This document shows positions 31,454-37,032 of a DNA stretch of 64,000 nucleotides, piece after piece. The first letter of the stretch is position 1; the number at the start of each line of letters is the position of its first letter. Source of the stretch: Limnochordia bacterium (lineage in GTDB: Bacteria > Bacillota > Limnochordia > DTU080). Below the pieces are notes generated by a model. The model ran no database searches, was not told where the DNA came from, and saw only the letters and a list, made by a program, of their open reading frames with translations. The stretch covers positions 576,001 through 640,000 of the forward strand of contig JBMNJG010000007.1 of assembly GCA_050951545.1 (NCBI GenBank), read 5' to 3'. The position numbers and the translations under genes were made by a program.

Positions 31454-32356
31454 ATGGTGGAAGTGCAGAGAATATGGGATCAGGCATCTCACAACGCGTT
31501 TACCGATCTCGTACGCTTTCAGGATCGCTGGTTCTGTGTCTTTCGGGAGGGGAAGGCTCATGTATCGCCAGATGGCGCGCTACGGGTGATCACATCGACG
31601 GATGGTGACACGTGGGAATCGGCTGCGCTCATCACTTCGGGAGACTCCGACCTGCGCGACGCCAAGATAACCGTAACCCCGGATGGCCAGCTCATGCTGG
31701 CGGGGGCAGAGGCATTGCACGACAAGTCTAGGCAGACGCACCAATCACTGGTCTGGTTCTCTCCCGACGGCCGCACGTGGAGCGACAAGCATGAGATCGG
31801 CGACCCTAACATCTGGTTGTGGCGTATCACCTGGCATGACGACAAGGCATATGGTGTGGGCTACGGTTGTGGCAAGGAACGCCTAGTTCGGCTTTACGTC
31901 AGCAGCGATGGCAAGCGCTACGAAACGCTTGTGGATCGACTTCATGATGTCGGCTATCCGAATGAGACCTCTCTAGTCTTTGACGGGGACACATTGTACT
32001 GCCTGTTGCGGCGCGATGGCGAAAGCAACACAGGTTTGCTGGGCATCTCGCAGCCGCCGTATACCCAGTGGGAGTGGAAGGGTCTGGGCGTGCGTATCGG
32101 TGGGCCGCACATGCTTCGTCTGCCTGACGGCCGCTTCGTATCGGCGGTGCGCCTCTACGATGGCAGTGTGCGTACCTCGCTCTGCTGGATCGATCCGCAG
32201 GCGGGCACGTGCACCGAGTTTCTTGCGCTCCCGTCCGGTGGCGATACGAGCTATGCTGGTCTTGTCTTTCACGATGGGTTGCTTTGGGTGAGTTACTACT
32301 CCTCTCATGAAGAGAAGACGGCCATTTACCTGGCCAAGGTCAGGATTCCGGGTTAG
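31454..32356 (+). CDS. Sialidase-like (BNR/Asp-box) protein
   Basis: HNAFTDL, Asp-boxes STDGDTW and SPDGRTW, GGDTSYAG. Confidence 0.85.
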   Translation: MVEVQRIWDQASHNAFTDLVRFQDRWFCVFREGKAHVSPDGALRVITSTDGDTWESAALITSGDSDLRDAKITVTPDGQLMLAGAEALHDKSRQTHQSLVWFSPDGRTWSDKHEIGDPNIWLWRITWHDDKAYGVGYGCGKERLVRLYVSSDGKRYETLVDRLHDVGYPNETSLVFDGDTLYCLLRRDGESNTGLLGISQPPYTQWEWKGLGVRIGGPHMLRLPDGRFVSAVRLYDGSVRTSLCWIDPQAGTCTEFLALPSGGDTSYAGLVFHDGLLWVSYYSSHEEKTAIYLAKVRIPG

Positions 32357-32372
32357 GGGGAGAGAACGCGTC

Positions 32373-32825
32373 ATGCCAACCTCGTACCGGAAGCTAAATC
32401 ACGAGCTCATTCGCCAAAGGGCTTCGGACATAAGAAGCAACATCGTGTTTTTGCGGGGTCAAGCCACGCGTCCCGATGAAGACTTTCTTTCCGATGATCT
32501 CGCGATCCGGGCATGTCGGTACGCTTTCATCGTGATTAGTGAAGCGGCTGCCAACATCTGCTCTCATACTATCGCTAAGTTGCTGGGGCGAACAGCAGAG
32601 ACGTATGGAGGGTGCTACTCGCTACTGGCGGAAAACGAGCTTATTACCCCCGCTTTGGCTAATCGACTTCGCAAGGTAGCCGGATTTCGCAGCCTTCTTG
32701 TTCACGGATACGCACGTATTGACGATCGCCAGACCCTCCTAATAATGCGTCACAGTCTAGGCGACATGGAGGACTTTCTCACGCAGATCTTTGCACTGAC
32801 GCTTCAGGGGACTGATGCGCCATGA
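32373..32825 (+). CDS. HEPN/DUF86 (HepT-like) toxin
   Basis: RX4HXY motif as GFRSLLVHGYARID. Confidence 0.85.
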   Translation: MPTSYRKLNHELIRQRASDIRSNIVFLRGQATRPDEDFLSDDLAIRACRYAFIVISEAAANICSHTIAKLLGRTAETYGGCYSLLAENELITPALANRLRKVAGFRSLLVHGYARIDDRQTLLIMRHSLGDMEDFLTQIFALTLQGTDAP

Positions 32826-33244
32826 AGAAGCATCATGCCCTCCCTTCCTGCGAACGTGATCGCCTGGAAACGCATCTACACCGTTTTCTCATGGACCAAG
32901 AGAACGTATTGTTTGCCTTTCTCCATGGCTCATTCCTCGATCATGATCTCCCCTTTGGAGACATAGACGTAGCCGTGTTCTTTCGACACAATCCTAAAGA
33001 CCCGGTCAGGGCAATTCTCGACCTAAAGGAAACGCTTGAGAGCGGAATCAACTTCGCATATGAAATCGATGTGCAGATGCTAAATGGTGCTTCGCTTGGT
33101 TTCCGCTTCCATGCGAGTCGAGGTACGGTGTTGGCCTGCAAAGATCAGGAGGCTCTCGATACCTTCCGCCAAGAGACTTGGCTCCGTTACTGGGACTGCG
33201 AGCCGTTTTTGAGGCAAAGTCTGACGTACCTTCTCGAACCGTGA
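32822..33244 (+). CDS. Minimal nucleotidyltransferase (MntA-like antitoxin)
   Basis: FLHGSF..GDIDVAV..IDVQMLN motif; ATGA overlap with the HEPN gene. Confidence 0.85.
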   Translation: MKKHHALPSCERDRLETHLHRFLMDQENVLFAFLHGSFLDHDLPFGDIDVAVFFRHNPKDPVRAILDLKETLESGINFAYEIDVQMLNGASLGFRFHASRGTVLACKDQEALDTFRQETWLRYWDCEPFLRQSLTYLLEP

Positions 33245-33337: not shown

Positions 33338-36300
33338 CTAATCCACCGGGAGGCCCACGAACAGGCGGCTGTCGATATCCGCAAGAGGGTCAGTCTCGCC
33401 GGCAGCGGCAGCTCTTGCGAAGACGATACCGGGTCGCTCGGCTCGCATGGCCCGGAGCAAGACGGTATAACCTTCGCGCTCGTGGCGAGCGGCCATGGTC
33501 CGTGACCACTGTTCCCACTCTGAGTGGAGCTTGCCAAACCTGCGCCAGGTGTTGGCAGCCACAGCCCGCAGTTCAGTACAGGTGAGGCCAGCGCTGTAAC
33601 CGTGCCTGATGGTGAGGGATTCCCTGCTGGCATCGGTTACTTCCCGACCACCGGTGATGAGCATGGCCAGTTGGGCGAAGCTTCCTCGAGCCATGCTCTT
33701 TACTGCTAGAATCTGGGGCGCCAGTGGATCAGCTGGTGTGCAGGGCGTGGAGGCCAGATACTCTGCCACTGCTTCGGAATCCAAAGCACTGTCGCCCAGG
33801 TGACCTGCGACGGATGCCCACGACACGAACGGGGCCAGGGACGCTCCCGTGGTTTTGGCTACGGCCAACCCTCTGTGTAGCAGGCTCGTGAGCACTGCGA
33901 TGAGCTCTTGTGTTCCTTTCTCAGCATGAAGCTGCTGGCAGGCTTGGATGAGGGTGGCGCGAGTGACATAGCCCGATGGCGCGGCCACAGTTAGGCCTAC
34001 CAGGGCATCAATCTCTTCTTTCCCGGCGGGGGTCAGGCTGTGCCAGGCCAGCCCCCACATGGCCTCATTGCGTGGTATGAGCTCGGCAAGCAAACTGGGG
34101 TCTCTCTGTAGATGTCCTTCCACCGAAAGATGGACTTCAGCATCCTTCAGTCCGGCAGCCGTGAGGGGTAGGAAGACGGCCACCTGGTCACCATCGAAGT
34201 CCGCCTGTAACCATTGGCACACCAGAGGATGAAGCTGCATAGCGTTTCCCGGCACGCGGACAGGGCGCAGCGCCACCAAGGCCGTAGGGGTAAGCGAAGG
34301 AGCCCGATTGACCAGTACCATGTGCTCTGCCATTACTGCATCGAGCAGCGTGTCATGGTCCAAGTCTTGGGACTTGGGGACGCGGCTGAGATAGCGTCGG
34401 ACGAGGGGTGCGAACATGGTCTTGGCCATAGGCTCAGGAAGGCCGACCTGGCGCATGTCGAGGTCCGCTCCCGGGGTGATGACTGTTCTGGCACTGAACA
34501 TCAGGCGGGAGCGTAGCCGCAGATGGGCTGGCGTAACCAAGGCATCGCATACCTCACTTACGCAGCGGGCCAGGGCTGTAGTGGCTGCCTGCACGAGGGC
34601 GGCGGGGGCTCCGCTCTTCTGCATGCGGGTGAGATGTGCATTGGCTTTCTCGAGATCCTGATAGGCCACGTCAGGCACCACGCCAATCTCCACAAGCTCT
34701 TTCTCTGGGATCCAGGGATGGGCGACAGGTGCAGCGAGTCCTATGACGGTTGTGCAACCTGTGTCGCTGGGGGCGCCAAAGGTGAAGGTGAGCTGCCCAT
34801 CGTGCAGGACGCTCCGTATTCCGGCAGCGGCCAATCGCTGTTGGAGCTCTAAGAAGACCGACGTCGCTTCAGCTGCCTGTACTACTTCGCCCCAGCTTAG
34901 TCGCTCAGCCAATACTGGTGCATCGCGGTGGGCGCTGGAGGCGATGTCTAGCTGCTCGGCAATCAGATCATAGGCCCCGACCGCGCGCAGTGCTGCGAAT
35001 TCCGACGCCCCTAGGATCTGCCCTTCAGGCTCAGCAGCACATACGTGCAACTTGTGACGAGCAAGGTGATTGGTACAGCCCCAGTACACCCAACCAGCAG
35101 TGACCGGCTGCTCAAGACGAGTCTCGGCCTTGGCCATATGCAGGATCTCCTGGCCATCGGTGGGCAGATTCAACCGGCGCAGACGTTCCTGGACGTAGCT
35201 TTCGTCAGGGGCAGAGAAGGGGCGCGCCACAAAGGCTTGGCCTGCTGCCCGGGCGATGCGGCCAGCGATGGCCTCGCGCAACTGGCCGAAGTTCAGGCGG
35301 GTATGCAGGCCGATGAAACTAAAGATCAGATCCACTGGGGTGCCATCGCTGAGCTGTGGCATGTCGCTGTCGGGCAGCACCGTGCTTACTACGCCTTTGC
35401 TGCCGTGTCTATTGGAGAGCTTGTCGCCCGGTTCAAGCGGCTCGCCGTGGCCTAGCCTGTGGGCCGCTGATGCGCTGATGACGATGCCGTCGTCAACCGT
35501 GTCCCCTCCCCACGATGTAAAGGCTGTAAGCAGGTTGCATCCGTGCCAGAAGCTCTTGTCATCAGGTTCGATACCGGACTGCACGAGAGCAGCCTCGGGT
35601 TCATTCGGCATAAGCCACTGACGCATCATATTGGCCCCCATCAGTGTGCGTGCGGGGTCGCTGTGTTCTAAGAAGGGAATCATCGCGGCAGATGGTCCCA
35701 AAGCCAAGACGTCACTGTCACTGTCGCTGGCGGAAAGAAGCTGGCCGTTTTCTATCGTGGCGCCCAGAGCGATGGTCAGTACTCGACCACAGTTGGGGCC
35801 TTCCGGCGTTTCGATGGGGCACACACGTCCGGCGTGGGCGGGAAAAGACGTGGGTGGACCCTCGTTGAGGAGTAGGCGCCGCAGATGGATGCGTCGGGAC
35901 AACCAGTTGGTGGTGTCCAACCGCTGCGCACGCTCTTGCAGAAACGACTCTGTCCACAACTCTAGAGGTAGAAAGGCCTGCAAGAGCGACTCATTCCATG
36001 GAAGCTGGGAGGCAGCTTCTCCAAGGCGAGTGGAGACATACTCAAGCAGTTGCTCACCCACGCACAGGACGCGCGCTCGATCTAACTCGGGCTGATCGGC
36101 GATCGGTACCACCACCCACGCCTCCCCTAGATAGTGAAAGAGGCCCGACAGATCAGGGGTCGGAACGGTGTAGGCGGTCTGCACATCGGCGACCGTGATG
36201 TGCACCGTCACAGTGTCGTCACTGTTCCATAGCGTGTGATACCCTGCCAGAGGCAGTCGCTCATCAAGCAGTCGGGGCAACGTTTCATCTATGCACCGCA

Positions 36301-36355
36301 CAAATGACGCTCGGTGCCAGGGGGTGGCGAAGTCTACACGGCGATGTCTAGACAT
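33338..36355 (-). CDS. Miniature single-chain RNA polymerase (fused RpoB-RpoC catalytic cores), 1005 aa
   Basis: Beta motifs in order: GRVCPIETPEGPN, IPFLEHSDPARTLMGANMMRQ, GDKLSNRHGSKGVV, DMPQLSDGTPVD, RLNFGQLRE, HLARHKLH. Then beta-prime motifs: SARTVITPG, NRAPSL, LHPLVC, QADFDGDQ, ARGS. AAGGAG RBS. Confidence 0.93.
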   Translation of the reverse strand: MSRHRRVDFATPWHRASFVRCIDETLPRLLDERLPLAGYHTLWNSDDTVTVHITVADVQTAYTVPTPDLSGLFHYLGEAWVVVPIADQPELDRARVLCVGEQLLEYVSTRLGEAASQLPWNESLLQAFLPLELWTESFLQERAQRLDTTNWLSRRIHLRRLLLNEGPPTSFPAHAGRVCPIETPEGPNCGRVLTIALGATIENGQLLSASDSDSDVLALGPSAAMIPFLEHSDPARTLMGANMMRQWLMPNEPEAALVQSGIEPDDKSFWHGCNLLTAFTSWGGDTVDDGIVISASAAHRLGHGEPLEPGDKLSNRHGSKGVVSTVLPDSDMPQLSDGTPVDLIFSFIGLHTRLNFGQLREAIAGRIARAAGQAFVARPFSAPDESYVQERLRRLNLPTDGQEILHMAKAETRLEQPVTAGWVYWGCTNHLARHKLHVCAAEPEGQILGASEFAALRAVGAYDLIAEQLDIASSAHRDAPVLAERLSWGEVVQAAEATSVFLELQQRLAAAGIRSVLHDGQLTFTFGAPSDTGCTTVIGLAAPVAHPWIPEKELVEIGVVPDVAYQDLEKANAHLTRMQKSGAPAALVQAATTALARCVSEVCDALVTPAHLRLRSRLMFSARTVITPGADLDMRQVGLPEPMAKTMFAPLVRRYLSRVPKSQDLDHDTLLDAVMAEHMVLVNRAPSLTPTALVALRPVRVPGNAMQLHPLVCQWLQADFDGDQVAVFLPLTAAGLKDAEVHLSVEGHLQRDPSLLAELIPRNEAMWGLAWHSLTPAGKEEIDALVGLTVAAPSGYVTRATLIQACQQLHAEKGTQELIAVLTSLLHRGLAVAKTTGASLAPFVSWASVAGHLGDSALDSEAVAEYLASTPCTPADPLAPQILAVKSMARGSFAQLAMLITGGREVTDASRESLTIRHGYSAGLTCTELRAVAANTWRRFGKLHSEWEQWSRTMAARHEREGYTVLLRAMRAERPGIVFARAAAAGETDPLADIDSRLFVGLPVD

Positions 36356-36373: not shown

Positions 36374-36988
36374 TCAATCTGTATCGGGGGTGTGCGCTTC
36401 CCACAGTTGGGCCAGAGACTTGCGGGCGTGATGCAGTCGAGAGCGTACTGTTCCCTCTGGGATGGCCAAGAGGCGAGCTACCTCACGGGAGTCGAGTTCC
36501 TCTTCGTGGATCAGACGGACAACGTCACGCTTTCCTTTTGGCAGGCTGTTGACGAGCTCGTCAAGCAGACGACGCTGCTCAGCTCGCTCCAGGGCAGTCT
36601 GTGGGTTACACGTTACAGTGTCAACCAACCAGCCGGGCACAGGGAGCTCTTCATCGTCTTCAGTAGTTGCTGTCTGCATGACCAGTGGTTGCTCGCGGCG
36701 ACGGTTGAGGGTGCGTAGTTGGTTCAACGCGAGATTGGTGGCGATGCGATAGAGCCAAGCTCGACATGATCCCTGCTCATGCCACGATTCGGCTCTAGTC
36801 CAGACTCTGAGGAAAACCTCTTGCACGATATCATGGGCACTTTCCCCATCCCGTAGGGTGCTGATCACGTGCCGATGCAAAGGTGATTGGTAGCGCTTGA
36901 GGAGAACTTCAAAGGCTACGCTATCTCGCTGCTGCACTTGCCTAAGCAGCTCCTCGTCAGTCTGATGACCTTCGGCCAAGCGCTTCAC
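36374..36988 (-). CDS. ECF RNA polymerase sigma factor, operonic with the mini-RNAP
   Basis: DIVQEVFLRVW, AWLYRIATNLALN and EVARLLAIPEGTVRSRLHHARK motifs; 204 aa. Confidence 0.93.
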   Translation of the reverse strand: MKRLAEGHQTDEELLRQVQQRDSVAFEVLLKRYQSPLHRHVISTLRDGESAHDIVQEVFLRVWTRAESWHEQGSCRAWLYRIATNLALNQLRTLNRRREQPLVMQTATTEDDEELPVPGWLVDTVTCNPQTALERAEQRRLLDELVNSLPKGKRDVVRLIHEEELDSREVARLLAIPEGTVRSRLHHARKSLAQLWEAHTPDTD

Positions 36989-37004: not shown

Positions 37005-37032
37005 AGACACCGCGCCATCGCCTGGCGTTCAC
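37005..37032 (-). promoter_or_regulatory. Putative ECF-type (autoregulatory) promoter
   Basis: GTGAAC-N18-GTCT on the minus strand, ending 16 nt before the sigma GTG. Confidence 0.55.

Follow-up and report, generated by a model that had tools for sequence, protein, structure and literature searches.

A sigma-linked, single-chain relative of bacterial RNA polymerase that lacks the trigger loop

The stretch of DNA analysed here (the window) comprises 64,000 nucleotides of contig JBMNJG010000007.1 from a Limnochordia bacterium (assembly GCA_050951545.1, positions 576,001 to 640,000). Its reverse strand carries a gene for a small relative of RNA polymerase (RNAP), here called mini-RNAP. The stop codon of a gene for a sigma factor of the extracytoplasmic function (ECF) type lies 18 nt upstream of the mini-RNAP start on the same strand. 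Because only 18 nt separate them, the two genes probably form one operon. A promoter-like motif precedes the sigma gene, and the positions of these features are given in Table 1. In every cellular RNAP, the trigger loop is considered to play a central part in catalysis, fidelity, pausing and cleavage. The mini-RNAP lacks this loop and has no space to accommodate it. Its flanking segments align to the beta' subunit of the same genome, and the trigger-loop segment does not.

Table 1. Features of the sigma/mini-RNAP module in window coordinates (A1, alignment of 55 full-length relatives of mini-RNAP; own beta', beta' of the host genome)
Feature	Positions	Strand	Remarks
Mini-RNAP gene	33338..36355	(-)	1005-aa single chain, no internal stop; beta-derived N-half, beta'-derived C-half
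Region-H-like C-terminal element, residues 962-1001	33353..33472	(-)	hhalign against beta' 1115-1156, E 0.011; 0 of 120 shuffles reach the real score
Junction linker, residues 958-961	33473..33484	(-)	non-helical in the model; canonical beta' has about 330 residues there
Bridge helix, residues 926-957	33485..33580	(-)	single continuous helix in the model; residues to 952 aligned to beta' up to 780
SGARG-type motif (SMARGS here) and F-loop-like hairpin, residues 876-925	33581..33730	(-)	hhalign to own beta' 702-751; strands in the model
Catalytic Mg-binding DFDGD, residues 719-723, within QADFDGD	34187..34201	(-)	D719, D721 and D723 invariant in A1
ECF-type sigma gene	36374..36988	(-)	Pfam Sigma70_r2 and Sigma70_r4_2; NCBIfam sigma70-ECF, 103 bits (cut-off 42.9)
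ECF-type promoter-like motif TGAAC-N14-CGGTGTC	37006..37031	(-)	precedes the sigma gene; no second exact match in the window

Domain searches showed that mini-RNAP is a beta-then-beta' fusion of about two-fifths the combined length of both subunits. Pfam Rpb2_3 matched residues 171-201, Rpb2_6 matched residues 307-441 (E 1.3e-31), and Rpb1_2 matched residues 667-739 (E 2.8e-21). With hhalign, residues 85-520 aligned to the genome's own beta (E 3.5e-75), covering 433 of about 740 beta columns, and residues 558-952 aligned to own beta' 273-780 (probability 100%, E 1.8e-44). A phmmer search of the PDB returned beta chains to E 1e-34 and beta' chains to E 2e-22. The NCBIfam models TIGR02013 (rpoB) and TIGR02386 (rpoC) matched piecewise only, at 150.2 and 92.9 bits against cut-offs of 801.15 and 963.5; the top-scoring models of that collection were PRK14844 and PRK09603 (161 and 147 bits, cut-offs 4632 and 5372). 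An RpoB or RpoC orthologue was ruled out by the missed equivalog cut-offs and the absent trigger loop. The beta-type double-psi barrel is marked by SNRHGSKG at residues 314-321 (GDKxxxRHGxKG-type) together with Rpb2_6. Mini-RNAP keeps both catalytic barrels, the fork-loop region, a switch-2-type RVxFSGRAVI motif and the clamp-helix region, and towards its C-terminus also an SGARG motif, an F-loop, a bridge helix and region H. The beta' segment from the bridge helix to region H, including the trigger loop, is lost, as is much of beta. The host genome (3.64 Mb, 16 contigs, 94% complete) carries canonical rpoB and rpoC as separate genes on a different contig, so the mini-RNAP gene is an extra one. 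The own beta' shares 74% identity with that of a Pelotomaculum metagenome-assembled genome, which assigns the organism to Bacillota.

For the C-terminal region, the family profile A1 was aligned with a second profile, made from 20 canonical beta' sequences with that of the host genome in first place. Residues 876-952 matched beta' 702-780 (probability 97%, E 5.8e-11), a stretch that spans SGARG motif, F-loop and bridge helix. Residues 978-1001 matched region H at beta' 1130-1153 with E 0.04, or E 0.0025 from the beta' side, and a looser setting extended this match to residues 962-1004 against beta' 1115-1156 (E 0.011). The region-H match is collinear with the upstream match, and its score was 22.9 compared with 13.6 ± 2.4 for 120 column shuffles (maximum 21.9). 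Between the two matches, about 9 mini-RNAP residues replace about 330 residues of own beta', including the trigger loop GEPGTQLTMRTFH (region G). In own beta' the trigger-loop sequence GEPGTQLTMRTFHTGG stands at frame position 913, between the aligned flanks, in the segment that has no mini-RNAP counterpart. When the canonical beta' segments 890-960 (trigger loop), 960-1114 and 781-1114 were searched against the family, the best E values were 0.4-0.5 over 13-16 columns. The canonical trigger-loop profile itself reached E 0.41 over 13 columns, and no trigger loop of the RpoC type was found.

The absence of the trigger loop had been claimed in an earlier note on this DNA, and the claim stood: the flanks are collinear with beta', the trigger-loop profile has no match, and the model described below has no helical hairpin. 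The strings quoted in that note are present, namely AVKSMARGSFAQL at residues 884-896, GYSAGLTCTEL at 919-929, GYTVLLR at 962-968 and VFARAAAAGETDPLADIDSRLFVG at 978-1001; AVKSMARGSFAQL starts at nucleotide 33706, six bases beyond the end of 33700 given there. The C-terminal segment VFARAAAAGETDPLADIDSRLFVG, which had been likened to the terminal clamp element, does pair with region H (beta' 1130-1153). A jump of about 8 residues after the bridge helix had also been reported, and the computed gap to region H is about 4-9 residues. The pairing of GYTVLLR with the bridge-helix end SGYLTRR has to be corrected, as in the looser alignment this string pairs with the region-H helix ESFLSAAS.

An AlphaFold2 model built with A1 had a mean predicted local distance difference test score (pLDDT) of 93.8 and a predicted template modelling score (pTM) of 0.92, with 871 residues at a pLDDT of 90 or above. 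In the SGARG region, helices at 879-886 and 893-900 are followed by the hairpin strands 904-907 and 913-916. One long bridge helix then spans 926-957, a non-helical part covers 958-964, and the chain ends with helices 965-971, 975-985 and 994-1000 (7, 11 and 7 residues). The block 951-960 has a mean pLDDT of 74, the lowest in the C-terminal part. After the bridge helix only 48 residues remain, of which about 40 are assigned to region H. A helical hairpin in the trigger-loop position would have spoken against the earlier note; none is present after the bridge helix in the model, where no pair of long helices is able to form one. The bridge helix that belongs to the two-barrel superfamily is recognisable from helix 926-957 and its alignment to the beta' bridge helix, and its sequence is poorly conserved. 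In a Foldseek search of the PDB, most matches of the model were to RNAP beta chains, with one or more to beta' chains (E down to 4e-22, no residue-level alignment). Against BFVD, it returned only generic large-virus RNAP subunits.

Mini-RNAP belongs to a family. An exhaustive representative search found 345 representative clusters of relatives with E no higher than 1e-30, and their length is mostly 1000-1060 aa. A word-based search listed at least 120 matches at 41-48% identity and an identical sequence; all those listed carry Rpb2_6 and Rpb1_2, and most also carry Rpb2_3. The named matches come from Chloroflexota, Armatimonadota, Planctomycetota, Hydrogenedentes, Poribacteria and Bacillota, and the database names, where given, are "hypothetical protein" or bare lists of Pfam domains. 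In 176 full-length relatives with DF[DN]GD, the distance from this motif to the C-terminus has a median of 294 residues (5th-95th percentile 286-310), compared with 739 in own beta'. One outlier of 496 was due to an earlier chance match of the DF[DN]GD pattern. A strict trigger-loop pattern was found in none of the 269 proteins searched. A one-off deletion or an assembly artefact was ruled out by the family-wide short C-terminal distance. The lack noted earlier is therefore common to the whole family, and the homologs carry no trigger-loop motif.

The distribution of the family is widespread yet patchy. With two candidates scored per genome, so that copies may be missed, it was found in none of 300 other genomes of the window phylum and in 2 of 401 genomes of the phylum of genome G301. 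None of the four genomes reached through loci had it. Among 30 relatives, it was present in two of five same-family genomes and in neither of two same-genus genomes. A search of 50,697 phage records gave no family member; the tblastn matches were partial, covered at most 37% of the query and were mostly rpoB/rpoC-like genes. No member was found in 72,556 plasmid records. PADLOC gave no match for mini-RNAP, and PHROGs gave matches to RNAP-beta-like families only. All 24 sequencing runs listed are DNA runs from digester, bioreactor, landfill or sludge metagenomes, and the stretch is present in 20 of these runs.

Longer fused forms were absent at E up to 1e-30 among proteins of 1760-5000 aa searched with residues 450-1005, which is weak evidence. 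The ESM Atlas and P0263/P0267 gave other fused beta/beta' clusters of 1221-1790 aa, one with a pyrophosphatase domain, and some of the ESM Atlas clusters of 1330-1790 aa carry Pfam Rpb1_5. P0267 (2309 aa), a fused protein of a different family, has a trigger-loop-like GEPMTQL string. Larger fused relatives that have the trigger-loop region probably exist outside the mini-RNAP family, and the other fused clusters may be intermediates between full-size and mini forms.

The Asp triad of the catalytic motif is intact in 191 of 197 full-length relatives, and together with Rpb1_2 it marks the beta'-type barrel. In A1, the beta barrel residues G310, D311, R316 and G318 are invariant, K312, N315, H317, K320 and G321 are nearly so, and R684 and P686 of the NRAP motif are nearly invariant. 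Judged by these alignments, the active site is under selection. The unbroken reading frame and this conservation of the active site rule out a pseudogene. At the position equivalent to beta' N458 (residue 717, window 34187-34207 on the reverse strand), this copy has Gln; about 127 of the 197 relatives have N, 33 have D, 24 have Q and 6 have E, with others rare. Within the family, the top-residue frequency averages 0.55 over the whole protein, 0.77 in the beta barrel motif, 0.74 in region H and 0.35 in the bridge helix. Among the family segments scored, the bridge helix ranks lowest in conservation, and region H is one of the best conserved. In the 20 canonical beta' sequences, the values are 0.89 for the bridge helix, 0.88 for the trigger loop and 0.72 overall; the two alignments differ in depth, and only the rank within each is comparable. 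The low conservation of the bridge helix would fit a helix freed from its trigger-loop partner.

Relative loci were collected through genome searches (2 loci) and through a metagenome scan with a family-specific C-terminal alignment (60 loci). A contig scan with the full A1 picked up patterns common to ordinary rpoB; all 80 loci kept from it were canonical rpoB/rpoC operons and served for comparison sequences. The polymerase frame is complete in 30 loci, consisting of 27 metagenome loci, the 2 genome loci and the window, with near-duplicates among them (L100/L101, L106/L107, L125/L126, L141/L142 and L129/L130/L144). In 27 of the 30, the window among them, the next gene upstream is a sigma homologue of the same orientation. 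Two of these 27 have only a 113-aa sigma-like frame, and one has its sigma cut by the contig end. The full-length cognate sigmas matched the window sigma at E 1e-41 to 1e-61. No conserved neighbour other than sigma was found in the 25 loci compared.

The cognate sigmas (alignment A4) share the linker VPxWMIDxAxLGPxAALE between sigma2 and sigma4, at window sigma residues of about 115-137, with P118, D123 and P129 invariant. By sequence this linker seems unusually conserved, and perhaps it is through the linker that the sigma fits the reduced polymerase. In two metagenome proteins of one lineage, P0095 and P0277 (1135 and 1160 aa), sigma residues 6-150 are fused in frame to mini-RNAP from residue 70. 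The fused part carries sigma2 and the linker without sigma4, and a partial cluster member is labelled Bacillota. These proteins are either functional fusions or deletion derivatives. A complex prediction for mini-RNAP residues 440-1005 (A1) and the sigma (A4) scored 0.12 against a mark of 0.32, was run without controls, and speaks neither for nor against binding.

Of 21 loci, 19 have the two-block motif TGAAC-N14-YGGTGTC a short way before the sigma frame, compared with a shuffle mean of 0.02. The loci that carry it come from distant phyla (the window, L088, L089 and L093-L140). The exact form TGAAC-N14-CGGTGTC has one copy in the 3.64-Mb genome.

Several other observations were made at these loci. 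In the window, the neighbours of the module are a HepT/MNT pair and a solute-binding protein gene. The HepT-like RNase gene (32307-32825, forward strand) and the MNT-type nucleotidyltransferase gene (32822-33244, forward strand) overlap by 4 nt, as in a toxin-antitoxin pair. The pair converges on the 3' end of the mini-RNAP gene, and its pairing with the module is not kept at other loci. In a single occurrence (L088, 4548-7472), the module adjoins a 974-aa protein with adenylate/guanylate cyclase, NB-ARC and TPR domains. A deletion remnant of the module (L118, 4924-5638) consists of a 106-aa open reading frame (ORF) with sigma2 only, followed by a 127-aa ORF that runs from the SGARG motif to the C-terminus of the polymerase. 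Similar short C-terminal polymerase ORFs occur in L110, L111 and L135, and in L145 and L146 the gene is in pieces.

We believe that mini-RNAP is probably a single-chain two-barrel RNAP, derived by reduction from bacterial beta and beta', directed by sigma and independent of a trigger loop; its activity is predicted from the sequence and the model. The retained parts, among them the clamp-helix region by homology, would hold the RNA-DNA hybrid and bind the two metals and the nucleoside triphosphate (NTP). Nucleotide addition would then need no more than the two-metal centre and those basic NTP-contacting residues that are retained, with no closing trigger loop, as is reported for YonO of the Bacillus subtilis prophage SPbeta. 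The functions that depend on the loop, namely substrate proofreading, intrinsic transcript cleavage and trigger-loop-mediated pausing, would be gone, and the bridge helix would have relaxed after its release from the trigger-loop partner. Because of the analogy with YonO, we expect a competent yet less accurate enzyme, without proofreading and indifferent to trigger-loop-mediated pausing. Mini-RNAP would be made from one operon with its dedicated ECF sigma, behind a putative promoter conserved across phyla, and the cognate sigma would direct it to promoters. We hold more tentatively, as something possible rather than expected, that sigma and mini-RNAP form a self-contained orthogonal unit: a two-protein holoenzyme of roughly 135 kDa with its own TGAAC-N14-CGGTGTC promoter and a canonical-type active site without a trigger loop. 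Such a unit might amplify its own operon, transcribe while the host RNAP is blocked, or act on foreign DNA.

Several points weigh against a sigma-directed RNAP that works without a trigger loop. The region-H alignment by itself is statistically weak (E 0.0025-0.04). The empty trigger-loop site is read from sequence collinearity and predicted secondary structure, not from 3D superposition, and helices 965-971 or 975-985 may provide a short structural equivalent of the loop. The Asp triad has exceptions among the 197 relatives, with Asn at the first Asp in 3 and at the third in 1, while 2 could not be scored. The variable N458 equivalent may reflect altered or relaxed sugar recognition or substrate choice rather than an ordinary RNAP. 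Three of the 30 complete loci have no adjacent sigma; in one of them it lies 1.2 kb upstream, past a 370-aa ORF, and in two, which are copies of one sequence, there is none. The promoter-like motif is not enriched across the host genome, with 53 sites at one mismatch or fewer against 54 in the control, and a looser pattern gave 5 sites against 10. Since there is a single exact copy and near-matches are not enriched, the only recognisable target of the sigma is its own operon.

The loss of the trigger loop and of most domains that hold downstream DNA could also have left a poor, non-processive polymerase that makes short products only, such as primers, abortive-type oligonucleotides or signalling RNAs. 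A canonical bacterial RNAP deprived of its trigger loop loses orders of magnitude in rate, which counts for this explanation and against our own. The active site of mini-RNAP is canonical in type, and much of beta is missing as well (433 of about 740 columns aligned), both of which agree with it. However, YonO, a polymerase of similar size without trigger-loop homology, is reported in the available part of its description to be fast, to match multisubunit RNAP in the efficiency of bond formation and to exceed it in processivity (PMC5467207). According to the same part, YonO is less accurate, has a higher affinity for wrong NTPs and performs no transcript cleavage (PMC5467207). By analogy, this precedent would speak against the "slow" and "short products only" that the earlier note had offered, and for "error-prone"; a different catalytic aid was the remaining suggestion of the note. 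Linkage to a promoter-specificity factor suits gene transcription better than oligonucleotide synthesis, without excluding the latter, and we regard the short-product explanation as unlikely. It is more doubtful still that the function of the loop is supplied in trans, by another protein, by the sigma2-sigma4 linker at initiation, or by mixed assembly with host subunits. The unusual conservation of the linker speaks for such help, as does the yeast linear-plasmid polymerase, which has its C-terminal beta' regions on the separate small subunit K2ORF7p in the available part of the account (PMC6211774). Yet only sigma is conserved beside mini-RNAP in the compared loci, its linker could act at initiation only, and nothing trigger-loop-like was found in the family.

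Two further explanations concern the reaction itself. Like the two-barrel enzymes QDE-1 and PolD, mini-RNAP could polymerise something other than RNA on DNA, being RNA-templated or accepting dNTPs. The N458 equivalent, which reads the NTP sugar, is variable and is Q in this copy, and the absent trigger loop is also a contributor to substrate selection. But the closest relatives by sequence are the DNA-dependent beta and beta' of bacteria, R684 of the NRAP motif is nearly invariant, and pairing with a promoter-recognising sigma indicates double-stranded DNA templates. We find such an activity very improbable. The lowest probability is given to a protein that is no polymerase at all, either a regulatory pseudo-enzyme (a sigma-binding decoy or a DNA-binding scaffold) or a decaying remnant. 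It would account for the Asn in the triad of 4 of 197 relatives, for the remnant L118 and the broken copies L145 and L146, and for the poorly conserved bridge helix. It is hard to bring together with an Asp triad, a beta barrel and other active-site motifs that are invariant or nearly so at about 40% identity over several phyla, with a frame intact at about 1000 aa in most relatives, and with a very confident model; we consider it barely credible.

If sigma and mini-RNAP do form a self-contained unit of this kind, the holoenzyme would be the smallest natural sigma-dependent RNAP. The family would then be a natural experiment, in which a bacterial-type active centre is freed of the element credited with most of the speed, fidelity and proofreading. 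It appears to keep sigma dependence, and it would be the simplest system in which to study sigma-directed initiation and, for engineering, a compact orthogonal transcription part.

A survey of unusual RNAP forms was reportedly made by Iyer and Aravind in 2012, and an earlier description of mini-RNAP is possible there. In the literature searched, no sigma-linked beta/beta' mini-polymerase family is described, and the supplements of the ECF reclassification might list the sigma group. The main text of that paper, in its available part, makes no mention of Rpb, rpoB, rpoC or Chloroflexi (PMC7826278).

Mini-RNAP has the two double-psi barrels and the Asp triad in common with bacterial RpoB and RpoC, and also their fork-loop region, switch-2-type motif, SGARG motif, F-loop, bridge helix and region H, but the bacterial subunits are two chains totalling about 2450 aa and mini-RNAP is one chain of 1005 aa. 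The full-length rpoB-rpoC fusions of the Helicobacter/Wolinella type also have the beta-then-beta' order in one polypeptide. Unlike mini-RNAP, they are about 2,840-2,890 aa long, complete, and the only RNAP of the cell.

YonO, which is compared here by its description as far as available, is likewise one polypeptide of about 100 kDa with both barrels and no detectable trigger-loop homology. It is borne by a prophage, has no partner sigma described, and shares few catalytic residues with multisubunit RNAP, whereas mini-RNAP is sigma-linked and not phage-borne, and its family aligns with bacterial RNAP over about 800 residues. The mini-RNAP family is thus far closer to bacterial RNAP than YonO is, so that the loss of the loop can be read against a familiar active site. 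K2ORF6p (Orf6) of the yeast cytoplasmic linear plasmid pGKL2 has, in the available parts of the reports, beta fused to beta' in a chain of about 974 aa whose conserved regions are set closer together, and an earlier analysis cited there saw no trigger, switch 1 or switch 5 homology in it (PMC2919709, PMC6211774). As described in those parts, K2ORF6p and K2ORF7p differ from mini-RNAP in belonging to a eukaryotic, poxvirus-like lineage, in having the C-terminal beta' regions on a separate subunit, and in being accompanied by a capping enzyme and a helicase and by no sigma.

Two-barrel polymerases without a trigger loop are already known from YonO, and the absence of the loop is not new in kind. 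What is new, as far as the literature searched shows, is the close kinship with bacterial RNAP, the sigma partner and the conserved promoter-like motif. As a single-chain two-barrel enzyme without a trigger loop, mini-RNAP would be YonO-like in its working; it is K2ORF6p-like in its architecture, and a reduced bacterial beta/beta' pair by descent.

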